Origin: Myxococcota bacterium
Lineage (GTDB): Bacteria; Myxococcota_A; SURF-8
Length of the DNA stretch: 64,000 nt
Assembly: GCA_963674735.2 (NCBI GenBank)
Contig: CAXXQS010000002.1
Coordinates: 1,792,001-1,856,000, forward strand
Reading direction: 5' to 3'
Of this stretch, positions 22,921-39,917 are shown in pieces (position 1 is the first letter of the stretch; each line of letters opens with the position of its first letter). The notes under the pieces were generated by a model that saw nothing but the letters and a program-made list of their open reading frames with translations, had not been told where the DNA came from and ran no database searches. The position numbers were made by a program, and so were the translations under genes.

Positions 22921-23077
22921 GCGGTACTTCCCGGCTCCTGCGGCGGGCGGTCCGAGCCGCCTGCCGACTTTCCCCTCTAAGCGACGGATACCGCCGGTAT
23001 CCGTTGCGCTTTCATGTGTTGATTAACCGAGACATTTCAGACGGTGGGCGTTTTGTCGCGTTCATCGCGCGGGTTGC

Positions 23078-25369
23078 TCAATGGGCCGCCAGCGGATCGT
23101 CGAGAGGTTCAAGGCCGTCGCCGCACTCGTTGGGACCGAGGGCTTGGACGACCCGCTTGAAGCGGTCGCCGCGCTGGTAATATTTTTCGCCCGCCGGAGA
23201 GGCGCAGGCCGGGGAGAACAACACGGCTTCACCGCTGCGGGCGTCGTCGGCGGCGGCGCGGGTGGCGCTTTCCAGATCGGTGTAGCGTTTGACGGAAATC
23301 GGGGGGGCCAACGCGCAAAAAGCGGCGTCGAGGGCAGACGCCACGTCGCCGAACAGGTAGGCGGCGGCAACGCGTCCGCTGCAGGCGCGCGCGACGTCAT
23401 CGAAGGCGGTGCCCTTGTTGACGCCGCCGGCCACCAGTCGAATGGGCATCGTGAGCGCTTCGACGGCCTTGATGGTGGCGTCGGGATTGGTGCCCTTGGA
23501 GTCGTCGTAGAAATCCACCCCCTGGTGGCGGTGGAAGTGTTCGATGCGGTAGCGCACGCCGCTGAAACCCTGCACCACGTCGGTCAGCGTGCTATCCGAA
23601 ACCCCCAGCAGATAGGCCGCCAAGGCCGAGCCCATCAGGTTTTCCAGGTTGTGTTCGCCGGTGAATCGGCGGGTATGCATGAACGCGGGAAAGCGCCATT
23701 CGGGCCGCGCGCCGTAGCGCAGCACCAGGTCGGGACCCTCGATAAACGCGCCGTGCTCCAGGCGTCGACTGCGCGAGAAGGGCACCATGCGGGCGCGGCA
23801 GCCTTGGGGCAACAGCGTGTTGACGATGGGTTCCGAATCGATGTTGTAGACGGCGAAGGCGGCCTTGTCCAAGAGGGTGAACAGCCGTCCCTTGGCCAGG
23901 GTATAGCCGCGCAGATCGCCGTGGCGGTCGAGGTGATCGGGGGTGATGTTGAGCAGGATGGCCGCTTCCACCGGCAGGGCGGTCAGCTCTTCCAGCTGAA
24001 AACTCGACAATTCGATGGCGCAGACGGAGTTTTCGCCGAGCTTGGGCAGATCGTCCAGAACGGGACGGCCGATGTTGCCCACCAGATGCACGTCGCTTCC
24101 GTATTCACGCTCGAAAAAGCGGTGCGTCAACAGGGTGGTGGTGGTTTTGCCGTTGGTGCCCGAGATGGCCACCTTACGGCCGGGAGCGCGGCGTAAAAAG
24201 AGATCGATGTCGCCCATCACCGGCACGCCGCGACTGCGAGCACGGGCGAATGCGGGGCGATCGGCCGGAACGCCCGGTGAGCGCAGGACCACATCGGCGC
24301 GCCACACGCCATCGAGATACTGTTCACCGGTGATGATTTCAAGGTCGTGAAAGGTGGGGGCCGCGTTTGCAACGTCGCGCTCGATTGCGAGACGGGCTGC
24401 GGGGTCGGCGTCGCGCACGACCAGCCGCGCGGGCCGGTGGCGCAACACGTGGCGTAACAGGCTGCGGCCCGTCGCGCCATAGCCCACGATCTCGACCTGC
24501 TTGCCCGAAAGATCGTTGCGGATGTCCACCTGACGTACCTGGAAGCGGTCGCCCAGGCCCATGCGGGTCAGTTGGGCGATGATGTCCGCCTGCGGGCCGT
24601 TGGTGAAAATACGCGCCGTGTTTTTAGGGGCGTCGCCGTTTGTGTTCGCAGGCGCGTCGAGGGCGCGCACCTTCAGGTAGTCGCGCACGAAGTAAGCCAG
24701 CGAGATGGCCGGATTGATGATGGCGCAGGCGGGACCAACCGCCTCCCGGATCTCGTCGGCGAGACGCGGAAAATGGGTGCAGCCCAGAAACAGGGCGTCC
24801 GGGGGCGGGTCGAGCTGCGGCCCCAGAACCTCGGTCACCGATTGGCGGCGCAACGCGCTTTCGCGGATCGGGTCGGGATCGGGACGTTCCACCCGCTGCA
24901 CCCAGCCTGCCGCCGGAAGACTCACCGTTTGCGCTTCGGGCAGGATTGCGTTGAGCAGGCGCGGATAGACGCCGCTTTCCATCGTGAGGCGCGTGCCCGT
25001 CAGCAGCACCCGTTTGGGTCGACAGGCCACCAGTTCCAAAAGCGCACCCGCCGAGGCAATGGGCACAACATCCACCCCGGCGCGGCGCAGATGCCGTTTG
25101 AGCGGATGGGACTCGGGCAGGGCGTCGAAGACGACCGAGGCGGTATGGCAGGCGATGACCAGCAGTTTGACCCGTCGCAGCAACATGCCCTCGATGATCT
25201 CGCTTAAAAAACGCTCGATTTCTGCGGCCCGGCGCTCGCCGTAGGGATTGTTAACCGTATCGGCGAAATAGTAGATCTCTTCATCCGGTAGAATGCGTTG
25301 CAGTTGGTCGAGCAACTCCAAACCGCCCACGCCGGAATCGAAAACTCCGATGCGATCGTGACGATTCAT
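23078..25369 (-). CDS. murI-murD: Fusion of glutamate racemase (MurI) and MurD-type ligase
   Basis: IGVFDSGVGG, IACHTAS, LGCTHFP; then SPGVP, GTNGKTTT, ELSSFQLE, NITPDHLDRH, DSKGTN, SPACAS in one uninterrupted frame. Confidence 0.92.
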   Translation of the reverse strand: MNRHDRIGVFDSGVGGLELLDQLQRILPDEEIYYFADTVNNPYGERRAAEIERFLSEIIEGMLLRRVKLLVIACHTASVVFDALPESHPLKRHLRRAGVDVVPIASAGALLELVACRPKRVLLTGTRLTMESGVYPRLLNAILPEAQTVSLPAAGWVQRVERPDPDPIRESALRRQSVTEVLGPQLDPPPDALFLGCTHFPRLADEIREAVGPACAIINPAISLAYFVRDYLKVRALDAPANTNGDAPKNTARIFTNGPQADIIAQLTRMGLGDRFQVRQVDIRNDLSGKQVEIVGYGATGRSLLRHVLRHRPARLVVRDADPAARLAIERDVANAAPTFHDLEIITGEQYLDGVWRADVVLRSPGVPADRPAFARARSRGVPVMGDIDLFLRRAPGRKVAISGTNGKTTTTLLTHRFFEREYGSDVHLVGNIGRPVLDDLPKLGENSVCAIELSSFQLEELTALPVEAAILLNITPDHLDRHGDLRGYTLAKGRLFTLLDKAAFAVYNIDSEPIVNTLLPQGCRARMVPFSRSRRLEHGAFIEGPDLVLRYGARPEWRFPAFMHTRRFTGEHNLENLMGSALAAYLLGVSDSTLTDVVQGFSGVRYRIEHFHRHQGVDFYDDSKGTNPDATIKAVEALTMPIRLVAGGVNKGTAFDDVARACSGRVAAAYLFGDVASALDAAFCALAPPISVKRYTDLESATRAAADDARSGEAVLFSPACASPAGEKYYQRGDRFKRVVQALGPNECGDGLEPLDDPLAAH

Positions 25370-27984
25370 GGAGTGGCTTCCTTGTTTTCAACGGTGGCTT
25401 GAGATTCGGTCAAGGTTTGAATTTTCCGTTTCAGATCGGGGTGGCGGTCGCCGAGATTCCAGGCGCGTTGGTAATGCATCAGGGCCTGCTTGACGTTTTC
25501 CTGCGCTTCGAAAGTGGCGGCGATACGTCGGTGGATGCCGCTGTTTTGCGGCTCGTAAACGAGGGCCTGTTCATACTCGCGCCGGGCGTCGGTGAAGCGG
25601 CCGCGTGCTTCGTCGATTTCGGCCGACAGGATAAAGGCGTTGGTGCGGTTCGAGGGGTGTTTCCAGGCCACCCCGTAAATGCGTAAGGACAGATCCTCGG
25701 CTTCGTCCAGGCGCCCCAGTCGGATCAGGGCGCGCGCCTCATAGAACCATGCGCCCAGATTGATGGGTTTGTAACGTTCGGCGCGCTTATACCAGATCAG
25801 GGCTTGCTCGTATTCGGCACGCCGGAAAAAGATTTCCGCCCGTAATTGGTAGCCTTCGTGCTGCTTGGGGAAATGACGGATGAGCCGATCGGCCACCTGT
25901 TCGGCGCGTTGCAACTCCCCGTTGTCGAGATCGATCTTGCCGATCAGGAATTCGATTTCCCGGTCGTTGCCGTCTTTGTCGGTGTGGTCGGCCAACAGGC
26001 GGCGCGCCGGGGCGTAGGCGTTGTGTTGCACCAGGAAACGCGCCAGTTCCACGCAGCGTTCCCGATTGTCGGTGACGGTTTGAATCAGCTCCTCCGGCCG
26101 CAGGCCGACCCGCAGCATGTCGCTCCACAAGTCGGCGAGCGGGATGTGGGCCTCGGTTTTTTGCAGGGCTGTCCGATACGCGTTCGTTGCGCTATCGCGG
26201 TTATCCATCTGGGCCAGCGCGCGGCCGAGATAGCGATCGACCAGCGGATCGCTGGGATTCAATTCACCGGCCTTGCGCAGGTGTTGCAATTTCAACGGCA
26301 ACGCGCTGTACGAGCCGGACGGGTAGCGTTGCGAGGCCAGTAGATGCAGGTAGAAATCGGCCGGGTGACGCTTCAAGGTGGCTTGCAGGCGCTCATCGAA
26401 GGCTGCCTGCGGTGTGGTGGCATCATAGACTGCGGCATGCAGGCGCGCCTGATCGCGGGGCAGGCGATAGCGAATCCAGGTCGCTTCGCCGACCAGCGCC
26501 GTGACGACCGCCACCAGTGTAAACACGATCAAAAGCCCGGTCGGCAACGCGCGCGCCTTAAACCAGCGGCTGGGTTCGCGTTCCGTAATCCGCAGCGTCA
26601 GCATGCCCAGCATGGCCATGAAGGGGACGGCGATGGCGAAGGTGCTCAGATTGAAATCGACGTAATTGTGAATGGCGATGACGAACAGAGCGCAGACCGT
26701 AGCCATTTCGATGCGCTTCAAATGCCGCCGTCGCAGAATCAGGATGAACGCCAGGGCGATCGACAGCACAACCAGTCCGCCCACCACCAGCCCCGATTCG
26801 GCCAGGGTTTGCAAAACGATGTTTTCGGGGTAGACGAACAGGCGGTCGTGGCGGGTGGTTTTGTAGATGGGGTAGGCGACTTTGAAGCTTTCCGCCCCGA
26901 TGCCGGTCAGCGCGTAGCGGTGCGCCAGGTCGGCCGTGTCTTCCCAGAGAGTGGGTTTGGCCGATACCGCCGACCCGGCTTCGTCTTCGAGCACGGCGAA
27001 TTCATGAGTGATTTCGTGCAGCGCCAGCCAGGCCGACAAAAGCAGAACGGCCAAAACCGCCGCCTGCACCCAGACGATCTTGCGGCGGTCGGTTTTGCGT
27101 CGCCACATCAAAATCGCCAATAACGCCTGTCCGGCGATGAAAGCGATGATACCCCCGCGTGAAAGCGACAGAAACACGCCCACCGACGTGATGATGGCCA
27201 GCACCAGAAAAACCAGCCGCTGCTGGCGGTTGACGGATTTGAGGGCGAAGCCGATTTGCAGCGGGACGCACATGCCCAGAAAACCGGCCAGATTGTTGGG
27301 ATTGACGAAGCTGGCGAAGAAGAAGGGCGGCTCCTGGGCGAAGGGAATCAGTCCGAATACTTTATCGAGTCCCAGCGACTTCTGAACGAAGCCGATCATG
27401 GCCAGTAAAAAACCCATCACGGCCAGCGTTTTCAAGAAGCGCATCATGCGTTCGTCGTGGGCCAGGAGGTTACCGCCCAGCAGATACACCATCAGCAGGG
27501 TGAAAAAGCCCGAAACCCCCAGCCAGGTTTCGACCGGATCGAGCGAGAGCGGCCGCCATTGCCCTTGGCCGTAAAGACCGAGGGATTCCAGCGAGATGCG
27601 GAAGATGCGATCGGCTTCGGGCGACAGCGAGGCCAGCAGGCTTTGCGGCAGCGGCATAAGCTGAAAGAGCGTGAACAGCGCCCCGCCGAGTAAGACGATG
27701 AACAGCCCGGTGGTTTTCAAGCGCACGTCCGCAAACAGGAGTTGGACCACGTAGGCGGTGAACAGTCCCGTGATGACGAGACGGGCCGCGAACATGGGCC
27801 AGGGCCGAGTGGTGGTGGTGCCGAGCATCAGTGGCAGCAGGACGACCAGAGCCAATAGGCCGATTTCGACGATGTGCTCGATGCGGCCCGGCTGTACCAA
27901 GTCGCGTGTGCGGCGGTTGCGGCGTTTGGTCACTTTTTTGAGCGGCATAAGGCTGCCTTGGCTCGGGTTTAGCGAACGGGCCAA
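25366..27984 (-). CDS. O-antigen ligase/Wzy_C-family membrane protein with C-terminal TPR repeats
   Basis: SFVNPNNLAGFL, SLSRGG, TGIGAESF, PENIVLQTLAESGLVVG, HNYVDFNL; TPR-like helices in the C-terminal ~350 aa. Confidence 0.87.
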   Translation of the reverse strand: MARSLNPSQGSLMPLKKVTKRRNRRTRDLVQPGRIEHIVEIGLLALVVLLPLMLGTTTTRPWPMFAARLVITGLFTAYVVQLLFADVRLKTTGLFIVLLGGALFTLFQLMPLPQSLLASLSPEADRIFRISLESLGLYGQGQWRPLSLDPVETWLGVSGFFTLLMVYLLGGNLLAHDERMMRFLKTLAVMGFLLAMIGFVQKSLGLDKVFGLIPFAQEPPFFFASFVNPNNLAGFLGMCVPLQIGFALKSVNRQQRLVFLVLAIITSVGVFLSLSRGGIIAFIAGQALLAILMWRRKTDRRKIVWVQAAVLAVLLLSAWLALHEITHEFAVLEDEAGSAVSAKPTLWEDTADLAHRYALTGIGAESFKVAYPIYKTTRHDRLFVYPENIVLQTLAESGLVVGGLVVLSIALAFILILRRRHLKRIEMATVCALFVIAIHNYVDFNLSTFAIAVPFMAMLGMLTLRITEREPSRWFKARALPTGLLIVFTLVAVVTALVGEATWIRYRLPRDQARLHAAVYDATTPQAAFDERLQATLKRHPADFYLHLLASQRYPSGSYSALPLKLQHLRKAGELNPSDPLVDRYLGRALAQMDNRDSATNAYRTALQKTEAHIPLADLWSDMLRVGLRPEELIQTVTDNRERCVELARFLVQHNAYAPARRLLADHTDKDGNDREIEFLIGKIDLDNGELQRAEQVADRLIRHFPKQHEGYQLRAEIFFRRAEYEQALIWYKRAERYKPINLGAWFYEARALIRLGRLDEAEDLSLRIYGVAWKHPSNRTNAFILSAEIDEARGRFTDARREYEQALVYEPQNSGIHRRIAATFEAQENVKQALMHYQRAWNLGDRHPDLKRKIQTLTESQATVENKEATP

Positions 27985-28961
27985 CGCCCGTCGGCGATCA
28001 GTTCGGCAACGCGCGGCGCGTGATAGGTGAGGATCAGATCCGCCCCGGCACGCTTGATGGCCGTCAACGATTCGGTGATGCTGCGGTCGCGGTCCAGCCA
28101 GCCACGGGCGGCGGCGGCCTCGATCATGGCGTATTCACCGCTGACGGCGTAAGCCGCCACCGGCACGCGCGTGGCATCCTTCACGCGCCGGATGACGTCC
28201 AGGTAGGCCAAGGCGGGCTTGACCATCACGATATCGGCTCCTTCTTCCACATCCTGGGCCACCTCGCGCAGGGCTTCGTCGGCGTTGGCCGGGTCCATCT
28301 GATGCGAGCGGCGGTCGCCGAAGGCCGGAGCCGAGTCGACGGCGTTGCGGAAGGGTCCGTAAAAGGCGGAGGCGTATTTGGCGGCATAGGACATGATGGG
28401 CAGCATGTCGAAGCCTTCCTCGTCCAGGGCGGAACGAATGGCCGCCACGCGACCGTCCATCATGTCGGAGGGGGCGATCAGGTCTGCGCCCGCCCGCGCA
28501 AAGGAGACGGCCGAACGCGCCAGCAGCGGCAGGGTGGCGTCGTTGTCGATGGCTTCGCCGTTGAGCAGGCCGCAGTGGCCGTGGGAAGTGTATTCGCACA
28601 GGCAGACGTCCGCCGCCAGCAGAAGCGGCAGCCCGGCCGCTTTGAGTTTGCGCAGCGCCTGTTGCACGATACCCTCGTCGTCGTAGGCCCCCGAGCCGCG
28701 CGGGTCTTTTGCGGCGGGAATGCCGAAGAGAATGAGGGACTTGAGGCCGCGCTCCACCAGCCGTTCGGCTTCGGGGATCAAGCGGTCGAGGGAAAGTTGG
28801 TACTGGCCCGGCATGGAGGAGATTTCGCGCTTGATGTTGGCGCCGTGATGCACGAACATCGGATACATCAGATCGTTGAGCGTGACGGTGGTCTCGCACA
28901 TCAGATCGCGCATGAGTGCCTGCTCGCGCAGACGTCGGAAACGTTGAGTCGGAAACGGCAT
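27969..28961 (-). CDS. hemB: Porphobilinogen synthase
   Basis: DVCLCEYTSHGHCG, APSDMMDGRV, MVKPAL; start reassigned to ATG 28961. Confidence 0.96.
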   Translation of the reverse strand: MPFPTQRFRRLREQALMRDLMCETTVTLNDLMYPMFVHHGANIKREISSMPGQYQLSLDRLIPEAERLVERGLKSLILFGIPAAKDPRGSGAYDDEGIVQQALRKLKAAGLPLLLAADVCLCEYTSHGHCGLLNGEAIDNDATLPLLARSAVSFARAGADLIAPSDMMDGRVAAIRSALDEEGFDMLPIMSYAAKYASAFYGPFRNAVDSAPAFGDRRSHQMDPANADEALREVAQDVEEGADIVMVKPALAYLDVIRRVKDATRVPVAAYAVSGEYAMIEAAAARGWLDRDRSITESLTAIKRAGADLILTYHAPRVAELIADGRWPVR

Positions 28962-28995
28962 ATTTGCGTCCTTTTCGGGGTGGTCCCGCTCCCCT

Positions 28996-29691
28996 CTATT
29001 CTTTGTAAAGATAGCCCCGACCGCGCACGGTAATGATATGTTGCGGGTTGTCGGGGTTGCGCTCAAACAATTTTCGCAGACGGACGATGAAGTTGTCAAC
29101 CGTTCGTTCGGTGGGCGACGCCTCCATGCCCCATACTTCTTCTAGAATGTCGGCGCGGGTGAGGATCCGGCCGGGGTTACGCACGAACAATTCGAGCAAC
29201 AGCGCCTCTTTTTCCGACAGCCGCGTCGATCCCTCGCTGTTTAGGCTTTCGCGGGTTTCGAAGTTGACCGTAAAGGTTCCGATTCTGGCATGACGATTGG
29301 AGGGCAATTCGCGCGAGCCTTGACTGCGACGGATAAGCGCCCGCACGCGAGCTAAAAGCTCTTTCATATCGAAGGGTTTGGTGAGGTAGTCGTCGGCTCC
29401 GGCATCCAGCCCGGTCACTTTGTCGAAGACGTCGGCGCGGGCGGTGAGCATCAGAATCGGAGTGCCGATATCCTGGCTGCGCAGGCTTGCGGCCACCGCG
29501 AAGCCGTCCATGCCCGGCAGCATCACATCCAGCACGACCAGGTCGAAAGGGTCGCCGGACAGATTGTCGGCCACTGCGTCGCCACGTGTCAGCCACGTGA
29601 CGGCATAGCCTTCGTGGCGCAGGTTGAGCTGCACCATTTCGCCGATCAGGGTGTCGTCTTCCACCAAAAGGATGCGGGGTTCCATACTCAT
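28996..29691 (-). CDS. OmpR/PhoB-family response regulator
   Basis: LLVEDD, LDVMLP, GADDYLTKPF, RTVDNFIVRLRK, TVRGRGY. Confidence 0.95.
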   Translation of the reverse strand: MSMEPRILLVEDDTLIGEMVQLNLRHEGYAVTWLTRGDAVADNLSGDPFDLVVLDVMLPGMDGFAVAASLRSQDIGTPILMLTARADVFDKVTGLDAGADDYLTKPFDMKELLARVRALIRRSQGSRELPSNRHARIGTFTVNFETRESLNSEGSTRLSEKEALLLELFVRNPGRILTRADILEEVWGMEASPTERTVDNFIVRLRKLFERNPDNPQHIITVRGRGYLYKE

Positions 29692-29693
29692 TG

Positions 29694-30842
29694 TCAGTCC
29701 CGGTTGAACGTGATGGTAAAGCGGCTGCCGCGTCCCGGTCCGTCGCTGGCGGCGGTCAGGCGCGCTCCCATGGAGCGCAGCAGCTCAGGGACGATGAAAA
29801 GCCCGAGGCCGTAGCCGCGCGCATCGCCGATGGTTTCACCGTTGCCGCGCCGAAATTTCTCGAACAAAGCGGCCTTGTCCGACTCATTAAACCCGATTCC
29901 CCGGTCGCTGACCTCGATCGATACCGTATCCGCCGCGATCGTGACGGCGACCGCCACTTCGGGATCGGCGGGCGAGTATTTGAAGGCGTTGTCGAGCAGG
30001 TTGTGCATCACCTGGCGCATCAAATCGGGGTCGGCTTGCACCGTGGCTTCATCGCCGCCGCTACTTGTGAAACTGGACTGCTGCGTGGGAAAGATCTGGT
30101 TGCGGCGCTCGACGAACTCGCGCGTTTCCGCCACCAGCTTTATCTCGCGCAGGTGTGCCGAAAAAACGTCGCGTCCGAGGCGGTTGGCCATCAGCACGTT
30201 TTCCAAAAGGCGCTGCAGGCGCGCGGTTTCGGTGAGTCCCAAGCGGGCATAGCGCGGGATATCCGCTTCGCCGACCGTGTGCGCCGCCAGGGTTTCCAGA
30301 AGCGCCCGGACTCCCGCCAGCGGGGTCTTCAGCTCGTGGGAGACGGCCTGGAAAAAAGTTTCCATCTCTCGCCGGTTGCGTTGTTCGGTGGCCAGCAACC
30401 GGTGGAAGATGAGAATGCAGACGCCGATCAACAAAAGCAGTAGAACACCCTCGCCGAAGATCATCAAGCGTCGCCGTTGGTGTTTCCGGCGAAGTTCGTC
30501 GAGTGCGGGGGCCTGGGTGCGCAGGGCCAAGGCGGGCCACTTGGGGGTGAGCACATAACTGTAAAGGCCTTCGGCCGTTTCGGCGGCGGGTACGATTTCG
30601 AAAGGACCGTCGAAGGCTTTCTGTTCGCGCGGATCGAGGTCGCGGTGCCCCAGTTCCACCGCCTGCAGTCGCGCTTTGGCGGCCAGTTCGGACAGGCGCA
30701 CCCGGTGCAGCGTCTGCACTTCCGACCAATGCAGGATGAACCACCACGAGCCCAGCGCCACAAGCAGCAGCAGCGAAACGCCGAAGAGCAGGTTGGGACC
30801 GCTCAGCAGGCGGCGCGGGTCGATGGGGGTGTGGTGTCGCAC
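29694..30842 (-). CDS. Membrane sensor histidine kinase
   Basis: Two TM helices around a short loop; SHELKTPL, NLLDNAFKY, DRGIG, GYGLGL. Confidence 0.93.
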   Translation of the reverse strand: MRHHTPIDPRRLLSGPNLLFGVSLLLLVALGSWWFILHWSEVQTLHRVRLSELAAKARLQAVELGHRDLDPREQKAFDGPFEIVPAAETAEGLYSYVLTPKWPALALRTQAPALDELRRKHQRRRLMIFGEGVLLLLLIGVCILIFHRLLATEQRNRREMETFFQAVSHELKTPLAGVRALLETLAAHTVGEADIPRYARLGLTETARLQRLLENVLMANRLGRDVFSAHLREIKLVAETREFVERRNQIFPTQQSSFTSSGGDEATVQADPDLMRQVMHNLLDNAFKYSPADPEVAVAVTIAADTVSIEVSDRGIGFNESDKAALFEKFRRGNGETIGDARGYGLGLFIVPELLRSMGARLTAASDGPGRGSRFTITFNRD

Positions 30843-30856
30843 AAAGACTCCCGTCT

Positions 30857-32140
30857 TTAGTTTGCGGCCAAGGTTTCACGCCAGGCGGCGGCCAGTCCGC
30901 GAAGCTGTTCGGGGGTGTGCGCGGCCGACAGAAACGCGACCTCCCAGGCCGACGGCGCGAGGTAATAACCCCGATTGAGCATGGCGCGATGGGCGATATT
31001 ATAGCGCGAAATGGCCGTTTTCGCCACCCGGTCGGAGCGGCGCGGCATCTCGCCCTCGGCCAGATGCAGCCAGGCGATGGACCCGACCCGGCGGCTGTTG
31101 AAAAACGGAATTTCCGCTTTTACGGCCGCGCAGGCCTCATCGAGTACGCCACCCAGCCGTTCCAGGTCTTCGTAGATGCGGCCGTCCTGCAAAATGCGCA
31201 GGGTCGCGGCTCCGGCCGCCATGGCGACGGGATTGCCCGAGAGCGTGCCTGCTTGATACACTGCTCCGTTGGGGGCCAGCTTTTCCATCAATTCCGCCGA
31301 CCCGACCACCGCGCCGACCGGCATGCCGCCGCCGACGATTTTGCCCAGCGTCACCAGATCGGGCCGGATGTTCACGGCGTGCATGTAGCCGCCGAAGCGC
31401 AGACGCAGCCCGCTGATGACTTCGTCGAAGATGAGCAAGGCGTTGTTTTTGATGGTGATTTCGCGTAAAAATTGCAGGTATTCGGGGCGTTGTTCGAGCA
31501 GGCCCGAGTTGGCGGGCAGGGGTTCGAGAATCACGGCGGCGATCTGTCCGGCGTTTTCGGCGAACAGACGCTCCACGGCGGCTTCGTCGTCCAGCGGCGC
31601 AACCAGCGTTTGTGCCGCGATGGCTTCGGGGACGCCCGCGCTGGAGGCGATGCCTTGGGTGATCAGGCCGCTGCCCGCCTCAACCAGCAGGTGATCGGCG
31701 TGGCCGTGGTAACAGCCCTCGAACTTGATGATTTTGGGGCGGTCGGTGGCTCCGCGCGCCAGGCGAATGGCGGTCATCACCGCCTCGGTGCCCGAGCTGA
31801 CGAAACGCACCCGCTCGAATTCGGGAAAGGCGGCGAGTACAAGCTCCGCCAGTTCGATTTCGCGGACCGAACAGGCGCCGAAACTCAAGCCTTCTTCCAT
31901 CGCTTCGCGTGCGGCGGTCAGAACGGTCGGGTGGGCGTGGCCCAGAATCAGCGGTCCCCACGACTGGCAGAAGTCCACCAACTCGTTGCCGTCCGCATCG
32001 GTAACGGTGGCTCCGTGACCTTTTTGGAAGAACACGGGATCGCCGCCCACGCTGTTGAAGGCGCGCACGGGGGAATTCACGCCGCCGGGCATCAACTGCC
32101 GGGCGCGTTCGAACAAGGCTTTCGATCGATCATTTTTCAT
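30857..32140 (-). CDS. hemL: Glutamate-1-semialdehyde 2,1-aminomutase
   Basis: MPGGVNSPVRAF, SGTEA, FDEV, GKIVGGGMP, YQAGTLSGNP; start ATG 32140. Confidence 0.96.
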   Translation of the reverse strand: MKNDRSKALFERARQLMPGGVNSPVRAFNSVGGDPVFFQKGHGATVTDADGNELVDFCQSWGPLILGHAHPTVLTAAREAMEEGLSFGACSVREIELAELVLAAFPEFERVRFVSSGTEAVMTAIRLARGATDRPKIIKFEGCYHGHADHLLVEAGSGLITQGIASSAGVPEAIAAQTLVAPLDDEAAVERLFAENAGQIAAVILEPLPANSGLLEQRPEYLQFLREITIKNNALLIFDEVISGLRLRFGGYMHAVNIRPDLVTLGKIVGGGMPVGAVVGSAELMEKLAPNGAVYQAGTLSGNPVAMAAGAATLRILQDGRIYEDLERLGGVLDEACAAVKAEIPFFNSRRVGSIAWLHLAEGEMPRRSDRVAKTAISRYNIAHRAMLNRGYYLAPSAWEVAFLSAAHTPEQLRGLAAAWRETLAAN

Positions 32141-32182
32141 GTCGTCTCCCGTTCCGAAAGAAAAGGATATCGGTATCATGGT

Positions 32183-32935
32183 CTATTTCGGTGTGCGGTG
32201 CAAGAGTTGCCGCACCGCTTCGCCCAAGGCCTCCGTGTCGGTAGCGCGGGCCAATGTCGGTGTCCATCCAATCTGCCGTAGCGCCTCGGCGGTGGTGGTT
32301 CCGATGGCCACTACTCCCACACGCGGCGGGTTGGGGTTGTGTCTGCGGTAGCGCGTGACGGCGCTGGGGCTGGCGAAGACCGCCACATCCACCGATTCGC
32401 CGATCGGCGGCACGGGCACCGCGCGGTTTTCATAGACCGTCAGCGGATAGATCAAGTGCCCCGCTTCCGCCAACGCCCGCGACGCCGCATCACGGCTGTT
32501 GCTGCCGCGCACAGCCAGGATGCGACTCTTCGGCGACAGCTTGGGCCCTAGTTGCGCCGCCAGCTGTGCGCCCGTGGCCGGGTCGGCAACCTCTGTGACC
32601 GGCCAGCCGTAGCGCTCGATTTCGGCCGCCGTGGCCGGACCCACGGCTCCCACCTGCGACGGCGCATCGGGTATACCATGCGACTGCGTGGCCCGCCACG
32701 CGAAAAAACCTTTCACGCCATGGCGACTGGCGAACAGGGCCGCGTCGAGGTACTCGGGCAGAGCGGCCGCTTCGTCGAGATCTGGATTGCGCAAACGGAT
32801 GTCCAGCGCAGGCGCTTCGAGCACCCGCAGGCCGCTTGTTTCCAGCAAGGTTTTCAACGCGGCGTTGTCTTCCGCCCGGCGCGTCAGAACGACGACGCCT
32901 ACAGGCCGAAGGGTTGTGCGATCGCTCCCTGCCAT
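32183..32935 (-). CDS. hemD: Uroporphyrinogen-III synthase
   Basis: VVLTR, FASRHGV, AVGPATA, VYEN, FASPSAV, AIGTTTA; follows hemC. Confidence 0.88.
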   Translation of the reverse strand: MAGSDRTTLRPVGVVVLTRRAEDNAALKTLLETSGLRVLEAPALDIRLRNPDLDEAAALPEYLDAALFASRHGVKGFFAWRATQSHGIPDAPSQVGAVGPATAAEIERYGWPVTEVADPATGAQLAAQLGPKLSPKSRILAVRGSNSRDAASRALAEAGHLIYPLTVYENRAVPVPPIGESVDVAVFASPSAVTRYRRHNPNPPRVGVVAIGTTTAEALRQIGWTPTLARATDTEALGEAVRQLLHRTPK

Positions 32936-33858
32936 GTCGCTTCTTCCTCCTTGCCGTCGAGCACCGCCGCCATACGTGCATAGGCGGCTTCCAGAACATC
33001 CTCGTCGCGGGTCGCTTCGACCATCGTCGCGCGCCAGACGCCTGTGGCGTCTTCGTGACCGAGACGAACGGTGATTTGGTGATCGTCGATGACGGCCCAG
33101 GCCCCGAAGGCCGTGTGACAGCCGCCCTCGAAACGCGCCAGCAGACCGCGTTCGAGGGTCACAGCGCGGAAGCTCGTTTCGTCGTGGAAACCTTGCAACC
33201 GCTCCCGCATGAGGGAATCACCCTCGCGAATTTCGAGACCCAGTACGGCCTGTCCCGCCGCCGGCAGCCACACGCGCGGGTCCAACTCGTAGGCCAGCAA
33301 ACCGTCCAGCGACAAACCGAGGCGGTCGATGCCCGCGCGCGCGATGATGATGGCGTCGTAGTCGCCCCGGCGCAGTTTGTCCAAGCGCGTGGGGACGTTA
33401 CCGCGCAGCATGAGCGGTTCGAGATCGGGGGCGAAGCGGCGCACCAGAGACTGGCGACGCAGGGACGTTGCGCCCAGCTTGCCGCCCGCCTTCACCGGCA
33501 GGGGACGTCCCGGCGCGTGCGCAGCGGGATGCACCAGCAGCAGATCGGCCACCGCCGCGCGTCGGCTGACCGCCCCGAGGGCGAGTCCGGCGGGCAGAGT
33601 GGTGGGCAGATCTTTCAACGAATGCACCGCCAGATCGACGCGTCCGGCCAAGAGCTCGTCTTCGATCTCCTTGGTGAAAAAGCCTTTGTCCGCCTGCCCT
33701 TGCAGCGATTGATCCAAAAAGCGGTCGCCCGCCGTTTTGATGATGATGATATCCGCGCCGCCCGGCAGCGCGGCCGCCACGTGGTCGGCCTGCCAACGGG
33801 CCAGTTGACTGCCGCGCGAGCCGATCACCGGCCGGGGCTGTACCGCCTCATTCGTCAT
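32899..33858 (-). CDS. hemC: Hydroxymethylbilane synthase
   Basis: GSRGSQLARWQ, KGFFTKEIE, VHSLKDLP, RGNVPTRL, EGGC. Confidence 0.95.
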   Translation of the reverse strand: MTNEAVQPRPVIGSRGSQLARWQADHVAAALPGGADIIIIKTAGDRFLDQSLQGQADKGFFTKEIEDELLAGRVDLAVHSLKDLPTTLPAGLALGAVSRRAAVADLLLVHPAAHAPGRPLPVKAGGKLGATSLRRQSLVRRFAPDLEPLMLRGNVPTRLDKLRRGDYDAIIIARAGIDRLGLSLDGLLAYELDPRVWLPAAGQAVLGLEIREGDSLMRERLQGFHDETSFRAVTLERGLLARFEGGCHTAFGAWAVIDDHQITVRLGHEDATGVWRATMVEATRDEDVLEAAYARMAAVLDGKEEEATWQGAIAQPFGL

Positions 33859-35071
33859 TGGGTTTCTCCGAGGTCTGATGAATCGAATCGAAAATGGCGT
33901 TGGTGTAATCGCGCACCGCCCCTCGCAGGCGGAAGGTCAGCCGCCGCCGTTGTTCCTCCGTGAGGTTGGGCAGTTCCTCCGCGATGACCGCCGGGATGAT
34001 ATCGTGAATGGTGCGCTCGTGCTGGTCCTGGGCGGCTTGCAAAACCGTGACCAGATCGCGTTCGCGGCAGAAACGTTCGAACTCGTTTAAAAGCCCGTCG
34101 AGGATATCCTCCACCTGGCGCACCTTTTCGATGTCGCGCGCTTTGAGCCAGATGGTGGATTGCAGGCGGTCGAGGTCGGTGAGGGTGACGCCGTCGAGCT
34201 TCCCCACGGCGGATTCCACTTGCAGCGGGATACCCAGATCGACGACTTCCAGCGGATGGTCGCTCGGGCGCGCGGCGATCATGGCGGGAGTGATCAGGGG
34301 CTCGAAAGCGCCGCTGCACACCACCACGGCGTCGGCGCGGGCGAGCAGTTCGGGTAAGCGGTCGAGCGGCTCAATGGCATCGCGGGCGAGCGGATTGATG
34401 CTGCGATTGGCCACCGTCAGCGCCCATTTCGTGCGCACGCGCAGGCTTTGGGCCACCTGCCGTCCGATGGCGCCATAGCCGACGATCAGCACGGCCGCGG
34501 AAGACTGGGGGTCGAGTTTCTGTGACAGGTAACGCACGGCGGCGTCGTGGACGCCGCGCAGACTGAGATCGGCCAGCTGGATGTGCTTGGTGTCGCGCGT
34601 CGCCCGTCCGCAAACGGAGCCCAGTCCGTTCAAGATCACCGAGGAGCGTTTGAATTGGCGAGCCACGTTGAAGGCGCAGTGAACCTGGGTGGCGATCTGC
34701 CGTTCGCCGATGACGAAGGATTCGAGCCCGGCCGTAACGTGCAGCAGATGTCGTGCCGCTGCGGAGCCGACGAAGGTGTAGGGCTCGGGAACCTTTTCCT
34801 GTCCGCTGCGTTCCTGCAGAATACGGATCATCTGGGCGCGTAGAATCTGGGCGGTCCAGTCGGGGGTCTCGGTGGAGGCGATCCACTCGTTGCGGTTGCA
34901 GGTGTTGAGCACCGCCAGCCCGTTGAGCATGCCGCCTTGGTCCAGACGCCGGGCCAGTTCTTCCTGCTCGTCCGTTTTGAGGATCAACCGGGCGCGCCAG
35001 CCCGCCGAGGCGCGGCGAAAATCGTAGCCCACCACGGCCAGGGGAATGTTAATCTGTCCGTTCGTCGCCAT
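33848..35071 (-). CDS. hemA: Glutamyl-tRNA reductase (divergent)
   Basis: TCNRNE, GLESFVIGERQI, GYGAIG, VANRS, DLGIP. Confidence 0.85.
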   Translation of the reverse strand: MATNGQINIPLAVVGYDFRRASAGWRARLILKTDEQEELARRLDQGGMLNGLAVLNTCNRNEWIASTETPDWTAQILRAQMIRILQERSGQEKVPEPYTFVGSAAARHLLHVTAGLESFVIGERQIATQVHCAFNVARQFKRSSVILNGLGSVCGRATRDTKHIQLADLSLRGVHDAAVRYLSQKLDPQSSAAVLIVGYGAIGRQVAQSLRVRTKWALTVANRSINPLARDAIEPLDRLPELLARADAVVVCSGAFEPLITPAMIAARPSDHPLEVVDLGIPLQVESAVGKLDGVTLTDLDRLQSTIWLKARDIEKVRQVEDILDGLLNEFERFCRERDLVTVLQAAQDQHERTIHDIIPAVIAEELPNLTEEQRRRLTFRLRGAVRDYTNAIFDSIHQTSEKPNDE

Positions 35072-35073
35072 GG

Positions 35074-36447
35074 CTATCGGTCCCGATCCGCCGCCGCCAG
35101 GTCGGCCAGAACCATGTCGGCCGCCTGCCGTCCGCTTTCGGCGGAGTCGTTCATACCGACGCCCGACAGGTAGTTGCCCGCCAGAACCAGCGCGCCCAAT
35201 TCGGCGGTTCGTTCCTTCAGTTGTGCGATGCGGTTGAGGTGGCCGGGCACCATCTGCGGAATCGCTTCGGCGTGGCGCAAAACGCGGGTGAAAACCGGTG
35301 TCATGCGCCGCCCTAGAATGGCTTCCGTGTCGGTGAGCGCCGCTTCGATCAGGGCCGCGTCATCGAGGCTGAGGGCGTCGGCGTCGAGCACCCCGCCGAT
35401 GTAAAAAGACAGCAACTCGTGGCCGTCGGGGGCGCGTTCGGGGTAGAGCTTGGACATGAAGATGCAGCCCAGGCTGCGGATGTTTTGTCCGCGCGGTACG
35501 AGGAAGCCGAAGCCGTCGGGGACGGCCGTCGCATCGTCGCCGCCAATCCCCAGGTGCACCACCGCCATGGGCGCCATTTCGACTTGCCTGAGCAGCGTTG
35601 CCATTTCGGCCGAAACCGGATCGATCAACGCCGCCGCTTCACCGGGCGGGATGGCCAGCACCACCGAACGCGCGTGGTATTCGGCCACGTCGGTGCGGAT
35701 GAACCAGTGGTCGTCGAGACGTTTCAGGTGTCGCACCGGTTCGTCGGTCTGCACGGCGGTGCCCAGATCCTTCGCCAGGCGGTCGGTGAGCACCACCATG
35801 CCGCCGCGAAAACTGAACAGCCCGCGCCGCTTGGGACGATCGGGGCGAGCCTTGCGCTTGGCTTTCATGTAGCGTCGCGCTCCGCGGATCATGCTTCCGG
35901 CGTCGCGTTCCCAGCGCCACATTTTCGGAAAGGCGTCGCGTGCGCCCAGGCGTTCCGGGTCGCCGCCGTAGATGCCCGAAACGAAGGGACCGATCACCCA
36001 CTTCGTCGCTTCGTCTCCCAAGCGGCGGCGGAAGAAGTCGGCTGCGCTTTCCTGCTCGCGCGCTCCGCCCGGAATCAGCGGCTCGGCCATGAGACGCAGC
36101 TTGGCTCCCATGCTGAGCAGGCCGGTGGTAACGAAAGAACCGGGACTCATGGGCAGGGGATTCAAGCGCCCGTTGCGCCAGATGTAACGCGCCTGACTGA
36201 CGGGTGCGGCCGCGACCACGTGGTCGTTCATTTTGAGGTCGTCCACCAGATCCCACACCGCGTCGGCGCTGGGGATGAAGCTGTGCGGGCCCATGTCGTA
36301 GGTGTAGCCGTCTTCGCTCACCGCGCGCAGATTGCCGCCCGGCTGTGCGTAGGCTTCCAACACCAGAACGTCCAGCCCTTCGCGTTTGAGTTGCCAGGCG
36401 CAGGACAATCCCGAGATGCCTCCGCCGATAACCAGAACGTCTTTCAT
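35074..36447 (-). CDS. hemY: HemY-type protoporphyrinogen/coproporphyrinogen oxidase
   Basis: VIGGGISGL, MGPHSF, SGIYGGDP, GFGFLVP, AIPQ, AGNYLSGVG; ATG 36447 overlaps the hemH stop. Confidence 0.9.
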   Translation of the reverse strand: MKDVLVIGGGISGLSCAWQLKREGLDVLVLEAYAQPGGNLRAVSEDGYTYDMGPHSFIPSADAVWDLVDDLKMNDHVVAAAPVSQARYIWRNGRLNPLPMSPGSFVTTGLLSMGAKLRLMAEPLIPGGAREQESAADFFRRRLGDEATKWVIGPFVSGIYGGDPERLGARDAFPKMWRWERDAGSMIRGARRYMKAKRKARPDRPKRRGLFSFRGGMVVLTDRLAKDLGTAVQTDEPVRHLKRLDDHWFIRTDVAEYHARSVVLAIPPGEAAALIDPVSAEMATLLRQVEMAPMAVVHLGIGGDDATAVPDGFGFLVPRGQNIRSLGCIFMSKLYPERAPDGHELLSFYIGGVLDADALSLDDAALIEAALTDTEAILGRRMTPVFTRVLRHAEAIPQMVPGHLNRIAQLKERTAELGALVLAGNYLSGVGMNDSAESGRQAADMVLADLAAADRDR

Positions 36448-37430
36448 TCCACCCCCTCCTGTTGTATCTCCCGCAGGCTTCGGCGCAGCCGTTCCGCCAG
36501 CCCGTCGATGAAAAGCGGGTCGGTTTGCACGGTGGGAATGCGCTCGAAGCGCCGGATCCCCGCCTTTTCGGCCAGGGTGCGCAGTTCGATATCGAGTTCG
36601 TAAAGGGTTTCGATGTGCTCGCTGACGAAACTGACCGGAACCAGCACGATGTCTTTGACGCCCTTGGCGCCCAGTGCGGCGACGGTCTCGTCGAGATAGG
36701 GTTTCATCCAGGTAACCGGTCCCAGGCGGCTTTGAAAGGCCAGCGTCCAATCGATCCCTTCGGGCAGGCGTTGGCGGATGGCCGCCACGGTGGCGTCTAC
36801 CTGCTTGGGGTAGGGGTCGCCCTTGTTCACCATGCGCTGGGGCAGGCCGTGGGCCGAAAACAGCAGCGTGGGGTGGTCGAGATAGGGTAGACGCGCATCG
36901 ATCTGACGCGCCATGGCCTCGGCGAAGCCGTCGAGATCCGCGAAGCCGTCGATGGGCTTGACCTGCAGCCCGGCCGCCTCGGCTTCCTGCGTGAAGCTTT
37001 GCAGCGCCGCCCGGCTGGTTGCGCCGCAGGCCTGCGGATAGAGCGGCAAGGCGAAGACATGCGTAACGCCTTTCGCCTGCAACTCGCCGATGGCTTGAGC
37101 GGCGCGCGGGGCGGAGTAACTCATGGCGAGCGTCACCGGCCAGCCTTTGTCGGCCAATGCCGCCTCCAGCGCTCGGGCCTGATCCTCGGTTTGGGGCACC
37201 TGCGGCGAGCCGCCGCCGATTTCGCGATAATGCGGGGCCACTTTGGGAGCGCGTTTGCGGGCGATGCGTCGCGCCAGGGCCCGGCGGACAAAGCCGATGG
37301 GGATGCCCGTCACCGCCGGATCGGACAGCAACTCGGTTAAAAAAGGTTCGATGTCGTCCAGACTGCGCGGACCCCCCATGTTGAGCAGCACCACGCCCCA
37401 GTTCGTTTCCGTCTCCGGCGCTGTTTTCAC
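36444..37430 (-). CDS. hemH: Ferrochelatase
   Basis: LLNMGGP, PLYPQ, FSAHGLP, GDPY, FQSRLGP, FVSEHIETLYELD. Confidence 0.95.
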   Translation of the reverse strand: MKTAPETETNWGVVLLNMGGPRSLDDIEPFLTELLSDPAVTGIPIGFVRRALARRIARKRAPKVAPHYREIGGGSPQVPQTEDQARALEAALADKGWPVTLAMSYSAPRAAQAIGELQAKGVTHVFALPLYPQACGATSRAALQSFTQEAEAAGLQVKPIDGFADLDGFAEAMARQIDARLPYLDHPTLLFSAHGLPQRMVNKGDPYPKQVDATVAAIRQRLPEGIDWTLAFQSRLGPVTWMKPYLDETVAALGAKGVKDIVLVPVSFVSEHIETLYELDIELRTLAEKAGIRRFERIPTVQTDPLFIDGLAERLRRSLREIQQEGVE

Positions 37431-37441
37431 CCTTGCCTCCT

Positions 37442-38845
37442 TCAGACCGTTTGGCTATAGCGCCGTTGTGCGAGGTCGCGCTCCAGGTAGCGGTCGAAAA
37501 CCATGCAGATATTCCGAATGAACGCGCGTCCCAGCGGCGAGACCGTCAGCCGCCGATCCCGGATCTCCAACAGGCCGTCGTCCACGAAAGGGGTCAGGCG
37601 CTGAAGCTCGTCGGCGAACACCGCCTGTGGATCGAGGGCCCAGCGTTGCCCGAAGGCGGCCAGATCCAGGGTGAAGTTGCAGAACAGGTCGATGATGAGC
37701 GCGCGCCGCATGGCGTCGTCGTCGCTGAGCAGAAACCCGCGCTCCAGGGGCCGTTGCCCGTTTTTCAGGGATTCGGCATAGGCGTCGAAATTTTTTTCGT
37801 TCTGAGCGTAGCTGCGCGCCACCGACGAGATGGCCGAGACGCCGAAGCCTACCAGGTCGAGCCCGCGCCGGGTGGTGTAGCCCATGAAGTTGCGATGCAG
37901 CGTGCCGTCGAGCAGGGCTTTCGTCATTTCGTCCTCGGGACGCGCGAAGTGATCCATGCCCACGGGGACGTAACCGGCCTCGGTGAAGGCGTCGTAGGCT
38001 TCGCCGAACAGGGCCAGCTTTTGTTCGGGCCCGGGCAGGTCGGGGCGCTCCAGGATCTTCTGATGCCCTTTCATCCAGGGAACATGGGCGTAGCTGTAGA
38101 GCGCGATGCGCGAGGGAGCGATGGCGATGCAGCGGGCGGCGGTGTCGCGCATACTTTCGGGCGACTGGCCCGGCAGGCCGTAGATGAGGTCGAAGTTGAT
38201 GGCGTCGTGTCCGGCCGCTCGCAGGCGCTCGACCAGGTCGAGGGTCTGGGCGTGGCTCTGGCGACGATGCACGATTTCCAGCACCCGTTCGTTGAAATCC
38301 TGCACGCCCATGGAAAAGCGGTTGAAGCCGTGGGCCACCAGGACGTCCACGTGTTCGGGGACGACCGTGCGCGGGTCGATTTCGATAGCCAGTTCCGCCG
38401 TCGGGCTCGGGCGGTAGAGGGCGAAGAGCCGCGTCAACAGGCGGTCGAGGCGCTCGGGGCTGAGGAACGTCGGTGTGCCGCCGCCCATGGAGAGCTGCTC
38501 CAGCGGGCGGGCGGGATCGATCAGCCCGGCGGTAATGTCGAACTCGCGCGCCAGGTCGTCCAGGTAGGCGTCGGCGGCTTCGGGTTTGGAGGCGATGTGC
38601 GTGAAACAACCGCAGAAAAAACAGCGTTCGCGGCAGAACGGAATATGCAGGTAGACGCTGATCGGCTCGCCGTCGGTGTTCCCGGCTTTCCAGCGCGCCT
38701 CCAACTCGGCGCGATCCACCTCGGGGGTGAAATGCGGCGCGGTGGGGTAGCTGGTGTAGCGCGGACCGGCGGTGGCGTAGCGGGCGGCCAGCTCGGGCGG
38801 CACGCGGGCCGGATTGGGCGGAACGGGGAAGGGGCTGTGCGACAT
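37442..38845 (-). CDS. hemN: Oxygen-independent coproporphyrinogen III oxidase
   Basis: GPRYTSYPTA, HIPFCRERCFFCGC, GGGTP, GMDHFA, HRNFMGY. Confidence 0.95.
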   Translation of the reverse strand: MSHSPFPVPPNPARVPPELAARYATAGPRYTSYPTAPHFTPEVDRAELEARWKAGNTDGEPISVYLHIPFCRERCFFCGCFTHIASKPEAADAYLDDLAREFDITAGLIDPARPLEQLSMGGGTPTFLSPERLDRLLTRLFALYRPSPTAELAIEIDPRTVVPEHVDVLVAHGFNRFSMGVQDFNERVLEIVHRRQSHAQTLDLVERLRAAGHDAINFDLIYGLPGQSPESMRDTAARCIAIAPSRIALYSYAHVPWMKGHQKILERPDLPGPEQKLALFGEAYDAFTEAGYVPVGMDHFARPEDEMTKALLDGTLHRNFMGYTTRRGLDLVGFGVSAISSVARSYAQNEKNFDAYAESLKNGQRPLERGFLLSDDDAMRRALIIDLFCNFTLDLAAFGQRWALDPQAVFADELQRLTPFVDDGLLEIRDRRLTVSPLGRAFIRNICMVFDRYLERDLAQRRYSQTV

Positions 38846-38846
38846 C

Positions 38847-39878
38847 TCACTCTCCCAAGCGCGTGACTTCGTCCACGAACACGCGCACGCCCTCGATGGG
38901 GGTGTCGGGCAGAACGCCGTGGCCGAGGTTGAAGATATGGCCGCGCCCGCCGCGCATTTCGGCGTGCAGTTCGCGCACGCGCCGCCGGATGTAGGCTTCG
39001 GAGCCGGTCAGTTCCAGCGGATCGAGATTGCCTTGCAGGGGGACGGCGTCGTTCGTGCGTCGTCGCGCATCGGCCAGGCTGACGCGCCAATCCACGCTCA
39101 GGACATCCGCCCCGCTTGTCGTCATGTCTTCCAAAAGGCCGCCCACGCCGTTGACGTAATAGATGACCGGCACGCCGCTGGGTTTGAGGTTTTCGACGAT
39201 GCGCGCCACGGCGGGTAGGGCGAAGCGGCGGAAGTCGGCCGGGGACAACTCGCCTGCCCAGGTGTCGAACAGCTGCAGCGCGTCGGCTCCGTGTTCGATC
39301 TGCATGCGCAGATAGCCTGTGACGGTGTCGACCAGACGATCGAGCAGGCTTTGCAGGAATTCCGGTTCCTGGGCGGCCAGACGTTTGATGCCACGGAAGC
39401 GCTTTTCGCCGCCCCCGCCCTCGACCATATAGGTGGCCAGGGTGTAGGGCGCACCGGCAAAGCCGATGAGCGCCATATCGGGACCGATGCCGTCGCGGAT
39501 GGCGTCGAGCGCCTCACCTACATAGCCCAGTTCCCGTGTAATGTCGGGTTCATGCAGGTGCTGCAGGGCGGCTTGCGAGTCGATCAGTGGCGCAAGCGTG
39601 GGTCCGCCGTCGGGGTAGTCGACGGTGATCCCCATGGCTTCCGGCACCACCAGGATATCGGAAAACAGGATGGCGGCATCGAGCGGGAAGCGGCGCAGCG
39701 GTTGCAGGGCCACTTCGCGCGCCAGCTCCGCCTTGTGGCAGACGTCCAGAAAGGAATGTCGGCTGCGTAACTCCAGGTATTCAGGCAGGTAGCGTCCGGC
39801 CTGGCGCATCACCCATACCGGCGGGCGGTCCACCGCTTCACCTCGGCAGGCGGCGCAAAATCGTTCACGTCGGTTCAT
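38847..39878 (-). CDS. hemE: Uroporphyrinogen decarboxylase
   Basis: WVMRQAGRYLPEY, AAILFSDIL, QLFDTW, QGNLDP, FNLGHG; start ATG 39878. Confidence 0.96.
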   Translation of the reverse strand: MNRRERFCAACRGEAVDRPPVWVMRQAGRYLPEYLELRSRHSFLDVCHKAELAREVALQPLRRFPLDAAILFSDILVVPEAMGITVDYPDGGPTLAPLIDSQAALQHLHEPDITRELGYVGEALDAIRDGIGPDMALIGFAGAPYTLATYMVEGGGGEKRFRGIKRLAAQEPEFLQSLLDRLVDTVTGYLRMQIEHGADALQLFDTWAGELSPADFRRFALPAVARIVENLKPSGVPVIYYVNGVGGLLEDMTTSGADVLSVDWRVSLADARRRTNDAVPLQGNLDPLELTGSEAYIRRRVRELHAEMRGGRGHIFNLGHGVLPDTPIEGVRVFVDEVTRLGE

Positions 39879-39917
39879 GCATACCTTCTCTCTCCCCCAA
39901 GCCTGTCCCAAAACAGG

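Follow-up and report, generated by a model that had tools for sequence, protein, structure and literature searches.

A glutamate racemase (MurI) and the D-glutamate-adding ligase of peptidoglycan synthesis (MurD) are joined in one polypeptide in an uncultured Myxococcota bacterium. The gene lies at positions 23078..25369, on the minus strand, of the window, by which we mean the whole 64,000-nucleotide stretch analyzed here (GenBank assembly GCA_963674735.2, contig CAXXQS010000002.1, positions 1,792,001 to 1,856,000). Judging from its sequence, the product is very probably a bifunctional housekeeping enzyme serving the second step in the assembly of the peptidoglycan stem peptide. Its N-terminal module would be a cofactor-independent, two-cysteine glutamate racemase that converts L-glutamate (L-Glu) to D-glutamate (D-Glu), and the C-terminal module a three-domain MurD that would activate UDP-N-acetylmuramoyl-L-alanine (UDP-MurNAc-L-Ala) with ATP and add D-Glu to it. 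From the motifs described below, we infer that both halves are active.

The gene is a single open frame of 763 codons plus a TGA stop, read from 25369 to 23078 (C2:1,815,081-1,817,369 in genome coordinates), with an ATG start and the motif AAGGAAG 5' of it. An initial annotation of this DNA had described a 763-aa frame joining MurI to a full MurD; the exact translation, Pfam and the NCBIfam murD model TIGR01087 all agree with this, and we add that the frame lies on the minus strand. Pfam places Asp_Glu_race at aa 28-218, MurD-like_N at aa 290-386, Mur_ligase_M at aa 402-585 and Mur_ligase_C at aa 608-722, while TIGR01087 scored 322.4 bits against the protein and 324.4 bits in the genome search, well over its cut-off of 211.95. 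The racemase module (aa 1-275, 24545..25369) ends after an FTNG motif (aa 255-258) that is invariant in the fusion clade, that is, in the 16 related fusion proteins introduced below. A 14-aa junction, FQVRQVDIRNDLSG (24503..24544), in which R279, D282, R284 and G289 are invariant in all 16, leads to the MurD module, which starts at K290 and extends to aa 742 (23144..24502). The protein finishes with a 21-aa tail ending in ...DDPLAAH (23081..23143), of which D758, P759, L760 and A761 are likewise invariant.

Catalytic and ligand-binding motifs, whose positions were checked by translating the exact coordinates, are present in both modules. In the racemase we found D11 and S12 (in DSGVGG), C74 (in IACHTAS), T76, E161, and C197 and H199 (in GCTHF). 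Aligned to solved racemases, the protein has the DSGxGG motif and both catalytic cysteines, as the initial annotation had stated, and the Asn that follows the first of these cysteines is a His. The ligase has its P-loop (GTNGKTTT, aa 404-411, 24137-24160), D478, H479, K493, K625, T627, K652 and S724; the P-loop, D478-H479 and K493 align to K115, D182-H183 and K198 of E. coli MurD, the last being the Lys at the carbamylated position, and all three domains of a MurD are in place. Alignment to solved structures gave the same division, the C-terminal part matching MurDs of P. aeruginosa and E. coli end to end (E 1e-47 to 1e-49) and the N-terminal part matching 23 glutamate racemases (E down to 3e-27).

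An AlphaFold2 model built with 16 homologues had a mean predicted local distance difference test score (pLDDT) of 86.9 and a predicted template modeling score (pTM) of 0.71, with the 21-aa tail at low confidence. When the model was searched with Foldseek, the racemase half superposed on eight listed glutamate racemase entries with template modeling (TM) scores of 0.83-0.90 and a root-mean-square deviation of 2.5-3.5 Å, hence a glutamate racemase fold, and the MurD half reached a TM score of up to 0.74 against solved MurDs. No structure spanning both halves was among the Foldseek matches listed. A predicted complex of the separated halves (MurI aa 1-280 and MurD aa 286-763, both from alignment A1) scored 0.00, where the mark to reach was 0.32, and gave no verdict on how the halves contact each other.

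The initial annotation had considered the fusion to be possibly a second copy with changed specificity, and had suggested looking for separate murI and murD genes. We searched the genome (5.26 Mb in three contigs, 94% complete) with TIGR01087, the NCBIfam glutamate racemase model TIGR00067 and PF01177, and found no separate copy of either gene. Only the fusion exceeds the TIGR01087 cut-off, the further Mur-ligase matches being murC, murF, murE and an Mpl-like fusion protein, and it is the only TIGR00067 match. Beside the fusion, PF01177 gave only one further, weak match, to an open reading frame that we take, from its motifs, to resemble PanB. No D-amino-acid aminotransferase was found in the genome, the best match reaching 35 bits against a cut-off of 277. 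The same held in relatives: all five that were tested have no MurD over the cut-off other than the fusion, and in each of the four fusion-bearing genomes tested it holds the only MurI match. The fusion is therefore a housekeeping enzyme and this bacterium's only copy of either activity; with no other murD or murI in the genome or in the tested relatives, it must supply the ordinary D-Glu step.

The gene lies outside the division and cell wall (dcw) cluster, as had been claimed, some 136 kb away from it (dcw cluster at ~C2:1,952,800-1,969,700). The cluster reads ftsI-murE-murF-mraY-ftsW-murG-murC-ddl-...-ftsA-ftsZ. The usual slot of murD is between mraY and ftsW; here no murD lies between them in the cluster, and the two genes are 7 nt apart. 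We also noted that, at this locus (G000:C2:1950001-1970000), no murB lies next to murC and ddl, and that the ftsA frame is only 219 aa long and matches the first half of the FtsA model.

The fusion was found at full length in 9 of the 10 species genomes examined for the order, the copy in genome G009 being cut by a contig end. A collection of 5.8 billion proteins yielded 16 clusters of fusion proteins from several sources, with 46-61% mutual identity. Among 401 sampled genomes of the phylum, ten had a match at E <= 1e-70: nine are the fusions of the order, and the tenth covers the MurD part only. The initial annotation had named two properties together, being common and being the sole housekeeping MurD: the fusion has the second but not the first, with only 9 of 401 phylum genomes carrying it. 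It had also asked that the junction be verified with reads. Contigs from two sequencing runs (X1 and X2, of one sample that may itself be the source of the window) cover 24000-25400 and cross the junction without a single difference or indel; a third run (X3) gave no piece spanning the whole stretch. Assembly artefact or chance is excluded, with full-length fusions recurring in nine of the order's ten genomes. The fusion is of a rare kind and is restricted to a small group of uncultured Myxococcota within one order. In a first sample, 31 other genomes of the phylum and G007 have stand-alone MurD matches, in most cases alongside a separate MurI match. G007, a fusion-less genome of the same order (95% complete), merits a separate remark: its stand-alone MurD has a canonical loop and shares a contig with a second Mur-ligase match, and no glutamate racemase match at all was found in this genome.

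MurI-MurD proteins outside this clade were also encountered. When 1.84 billion representatives were searched exhaustively with HMMER, four MurI-MurD proteins stood among the best 150 matches (the 150th scored 219 bits, and fusions scoring lower fall outside): two belong to this clade, and the other two are P0123 (761 aa, GC-rich, with a linker of ~60 aa) and P0127 (718 aa, AT-rich). The architecture is thus present in at least two further, distant lineages, but is very rare. A word-indexed search with the MurI part (aa 1-280) among proteins of 419-1336 aa found 13 clade members together with P0121 and P0122, and missed P0123 and P0127. Neither P0121 (PF01177 only) nor P0122 (BKACE, racemase and metallo-beta-lactamase domains) has a MurD part.

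To place the MurD half, we built a quick tree of 90 MurD sequences (LG+G4, midpoint root), with the Shimodaira-Hasegawa-like approximate likelihood ratio test (SH-aLRT) as the only measure of support; representatives above 520 aa in length or ranked below P0176 were omitted. All 16 fusion proteins of the clade group together (SH-aLRT 100), on a long stem of 0.85 substitutions per site. P0123 and P0127 branch elsewhere, each next to a stand-alone MurD (support 92 and 97). A branch with support 97 separates the fusion clade from 19 of the 20 MurDs of the same phylum, a placement in which the tree cannot separate horizontal transfer of the MurD half from acceleration.

A distinctive feature of the MurD half is a remodelled D-Glu-binding loop, SPACASPAGEKYYQRG (aa 719-734, 23168..23215), specific to the fusion clade. 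The initial annotation had already pointed to an altered C-terminal D-Glu motif, and this observation holds. The loop does not fit the canonical form SPACAS(L/F/W)Dx(F/Y)xx(F/Y)xxRG; all 16 clade members instead share the consensus SP(A)(S/C)ASPxGxKY(Y/T/H)(Q/G)RG (SAVGASPAGTKYYQRG in P0016), with 10 residues against the 11 of the canonical form, and with P725, G727, K729 and Y730 invariant. Mapped on E. coli MurD (numbered as the 2JFF index minus 1), L416 becomes P725, D417 becomes Ala, Q418 becomes G727, F419 is deleted, N421 becomes K729 and F422 becomes Y730. The canonical loop was seen in all 104 stand-alone MurDs of the match list (83 by pattern and 21 by eye) and in all 19 assessable MurDs of the same phylum, that of G007 included; the MurD of G010 was left out of this count, its sequence stretch having ended before the motif. 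Both the short loop and the ...DPLA tail are present in every one of the 16 fusion proteins, and neither was seen in the 123 stand-alone MurDs examined; the 21-aa tail is also missing from P0123 and P0127.

Does the remodelled loop change the substrate? We presume that the gamma-carboxylate of D-Glu is bound by backbone NH groups at L416 and F422. If these contacts hold, Pro725 would remove one NH donor, a role that the invariant K729 may take over. According to a review (PMC8788868), Asp182, Lys348, Ala414 and Leu416 sit near D-Glu in MurD, and the choice of Glu/Arg or Asp/Lys at positions 182/348 switches MurD2 between L-Glu and D-Glu. The fusion protein has D478 and K652 at the positions of E. 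coli D182 and K348, both invariant in all 16 clade members, as well as A723, and is thereby of the D-Glu type.

Several observations weigh against the reading as a bifunctional housekeeping enzyme. The racemase half scored 130.6 bits with TIGR00067 (133.9 in the genome search), under the cut-off of 146.65; the orthologous halves fall on both sides of this line, those of G004 (166.4) and G008 (148.6) passing and those of G009 (139) and G006 (123.6) remaining below. The loop is one residue shorter and begins with Pro, so D-Glu is not bound exactly as in the E. coli enzyme. With the genome 94% complete, a second copy could in principle have been missed. Lastly, the Asn of the CNT motif, which we take to contact the substrate, is His in this protein; in the phylum's stand-alone MurIs the motif is CN(T/S) in 20 of 20. 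The initial annotation had read this CHT correctly (aa 74-76, N75H, 25142..25150), but the His occurs only in this protein (P0001) and in P0002; the other 14 of the 16 fusion proteins have CNT, and so CHT is no feature of the fusion. By its distribution among these sequences, it is a young substitution in two genera.

How would such an enzyme have come about, and what would it gain? We propose that murD moved out of its slot between mraY and ftsW in an ancestor of one uncultured Myxococcota order and was joined in frame to murI by a short conserved linker, and that the fused gene is now the sole source of both activities. By inference, the fusion fixes a 1:1 stoichiometry and places the production of D-Glu beside its only consumer. 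A direct hand-off of D-Glu between the halves is plausible; that the short loop and the conserved tail are adaptations to such a hand-off, or to cross-regulation between the halves, is speculative. A partnership of this kind fits two published observations on separate proteins: in a fragment-complementation assay, MurI of M. tuberculosis showed a specific interaction with MurD (PMC3605390), and UDP-MurNAc-L-Ala, the substrate of MurD, activates E. coli glutamate racemase ~100-fold (PMC3037491). PMC6927343 offered nothing useful on activation by UDP-MurNAc or on the Asn. Taken to its extreme, the proposal would be a closed D-Glu economy, in which D-Glu would pass directly to a ligase with a rebuilt lid (PxGxKY, one residue shorter), no free D-Glu pool would exist, and racemization would take place only when the ligase is loaded; the DPLA tail, moreover, may dock on the probably cytoplasmic TPR domain of a Wzy_C protein encoded upstream, placing the D-Glu step at the membrane. 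We regard this extended version as rather unlikely.

A simpler account treats the two halves as beads on a string: the fusion would bring only co-expression and equal amounts, D-Glu would be released and rebound, and the loop and the tail would reflect neutral drift on a long branch. We give it somewhat less than an even chance. The long stem leading to the fusion clade is compatible with general divergence; P0123 and P0127 keep the canonical loop and have no tail, and since these unrelated fusions lack both changes, loop and tail are not required by fusion as such. Several known Mur chimeras, moreover, join non-consecutive steps, for which the survey in PMC10214165 suggests a benefit in stability or stoichiometry. 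What speaks against drift is that the 16 clade members, only 46-61% identical to one another, show no variation in the loop (P725, G727, K729, Y730), the DPLA tail or the linker (R279, D282, R284), which indicates purifying selection.

The remaining explanations would change what the enzyme makes, or deny that it exists. The fusion could be a specialized second copy whose ligase adds another D-amino acid, such as D-Asp or D-Gln, from the fused racemase. The D-Glu loop is indeed remodelled in all 16 proteins, and this one has CHT for CNT; the copy counts in the genome and in the tested relatives, though, largely refute the idea, T627, K652, S724 and D478 are retained, and CHT is found in only 2 of the 16, so that we consider it highly improbable. 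Less credible still, by a small margin, is a route like that of MurD2 and MurL, in which the ligase half would add L-Glu and the racemase-like half would epimerize the nucleotide-bound L-Glu. Its attraction lies solely in the analogy with the alternative pathway of Xanthomonas and in the altered loop, position 416 being changed in MurD2 too (PMC8788868). The switch residues of MurD2, however, are Glu197 and Arg358, whereas the fusion has Asp478 and Lys652, the very pair that converts MurD2 to a D-Glu ligase; MurL, as described in the same review, is ATP-dependent, has no known domains and is not a MurI-type racemase, and the racemase half of the fusion has normal motifs for a free-glutamate site. 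As for an assembly or frameshift artefact that joined two neighboring genes, we found no support for it: the junction is in frame in nine genomes of different assemblies and in 16 clusters, its linker residues are invariant, and the X1 and X2 contigs, possibly from the source sample, cross it unchanged, leaving this explanation with a negligible chance.

Compared with stand-alone MurDs, the C-terminal half of the housekeeping fusion is a three-domain Mur ligase of ~30% identity that shares the P-loop, the D-H pair, the Lys at the carbamylated position, DDSKGTN, GGxxKG and SPACAS; it differs in lying behind MurI and outside the dcw cluster, in having PxGxKY rather than (L/F/W)DxFxx(F/Y) after SPACAS, and in its extra 21-aa tail. 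The N-terminal half shares its fold, the two catalytic Cys, DSGxGG, GCTH and FxTxG with MurI/RacE enzymes (e.g. 3HFR, 2GZM and 1ZUW), from which it is set apart by its junction to MurD, by the His at N75, by a 6-residue insertion near aa 84-96 and by its score under the NCBIfam cut-off. P0123 and P0127 have the same order, MurI then MurD, but these metagenomic proteins are only 36% and 29% identical to the fusion, with a canonical loop, no DPLA tail and other linkers.

Mur chimeras are a known kind. Shirakawa et al. (2023; PMC10214165) surveyed MurE-MurF, MurC-Ddl, MurC-MurB, MurG-MurC, MurD-FtsW and MraY-MurG, which resemble MurI-MurD in being lineage-restricted and in combining two peptidoglycan-precursor enzymes in one polypeptide; like MurE-MurF, moreover, MurI-MurD joins enzymes linked by a shared metabolite. 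MurI-MurD is not a pairing listed in that survey, and neither 'MurI' nor 'racemase' occurs in its main text. Unidentified species were excluded there, and proteins from metagenome-assembled genomes, such as those of the fusion clade, would drop from it. Another source (PMC4803751) lists separate MurI and MurD in Verrucomicrobium and has no fusion of both. MurF'-Alr of Phocaeicola dorei (PMC13726279) also couples a Mur-ligase-type module to a racemase supplying a D-amino acid, and its ligase-like part modulates the kinetics of the racemase; there, by contrast, the ligase-like part comes first, the racemase is a pyridoxal phosphate-dependent alanine racemase, and a canonical MurF coexists in some lineages, whereas the halves of our fusion both look catalytically complete and are the only copies. 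The same kind of joining, of a Mur-ligase-type module to a racemase, is recorded in NCBIfam as NF008897, 'bifunctional MurF/alanine racemase'. Our literature searches, in which subscription journals were thinly covered, found no paper describing a MurI-MurD chimera. Two clade members, P0003 and P0005, are named only 'MurD' in their source, so genomes bearing the fusion would appear to be without a glutamate racemase. No comparative evidence that two enzymes work together is stronger than their natural fusion, and this one is the fused counterpart of both the M. tuberculosis MurI-MurD interaction and the activation of E. coli MurI by the substrate of MurD. It also offers a single-chain object for studying how D-Glu supply is matched to use, and substrate channelling in the early steps of peptidoglycan synthesis.

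The fusion gene is the last of a minus-strand run that consists of heme-biosynthesis genes (hemE to hemB), then a gene (25366..27984, minus strand) whose product, a membrane protein of 872 aa, combines an O-antigen-ligase-like Wzy_C domain with TPR repeats at its C-terminus, then the fusion. The stop of the Wzy_C-TPR gene overlaps the fusion start (ATGA, with the TGA inside the overlap), an arrangement that marks the two genes as translationally coupled. A crude hydropathy count gave 12 membrane spans with the N-terminus inside, which suggests that the TPR part is in the cytoplasm. The Wzy_C-TPR gene is the immediate upstream neighbor in six of nine fusion-bearing genomes (the window genome, G001, G003, G004, G006 and G009), and G008, G002 and G005 have another neighbor there. 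We considered this protein as an obligate partner but do not uphold that as a firm conclusion, given its absence upstream in the latter three and the presence of homologues in fusion-less genomes as well (22 of 41 genomes overall). In G008, an IS110-family transposase gene lies directly upstream of the fusion gene (L022:6699-7652). On its far side, the fusion gene adjoins a flagellin gene on the opposite strand, and a perfect 12-bp inverted repeat that could form a hairpin with a 3-nt loop lies at 22981..23007, ~70 nt downstream of the fusion stop, with no T-run at it on the minus strand.

Two further observations concern genes around and beyond the fusion. The genome encodes a second peptidoglycan-related fusion outside the window, an 845-aa open reading frame on C2 (G000, L005:1129-3666, minus strand): its N-terminus (aa 21-338) resembles a serine hydrolase of the PBP4B/beta-lactamase type at 129.7 bits, which is below the cut-off, and its C-terminus (aa 380-839) an Mpl-like murein-peptide ligase, at 376 bits against a cut-off of 388.7. 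Within the window, the heme genes at 27969-39911 (minus strand) make up a near-complete biosynthesis operon of hemE, hemN, hemH, a protoporphyrinogen-oxidase-like gene, hemA, hemC, hemD, hemL and hemB. The run of hem genes is interrupted between hemL and hemB by a response-regulator/histidine-kinase pair, and the same arrangement is found in G001, G003 and G004.

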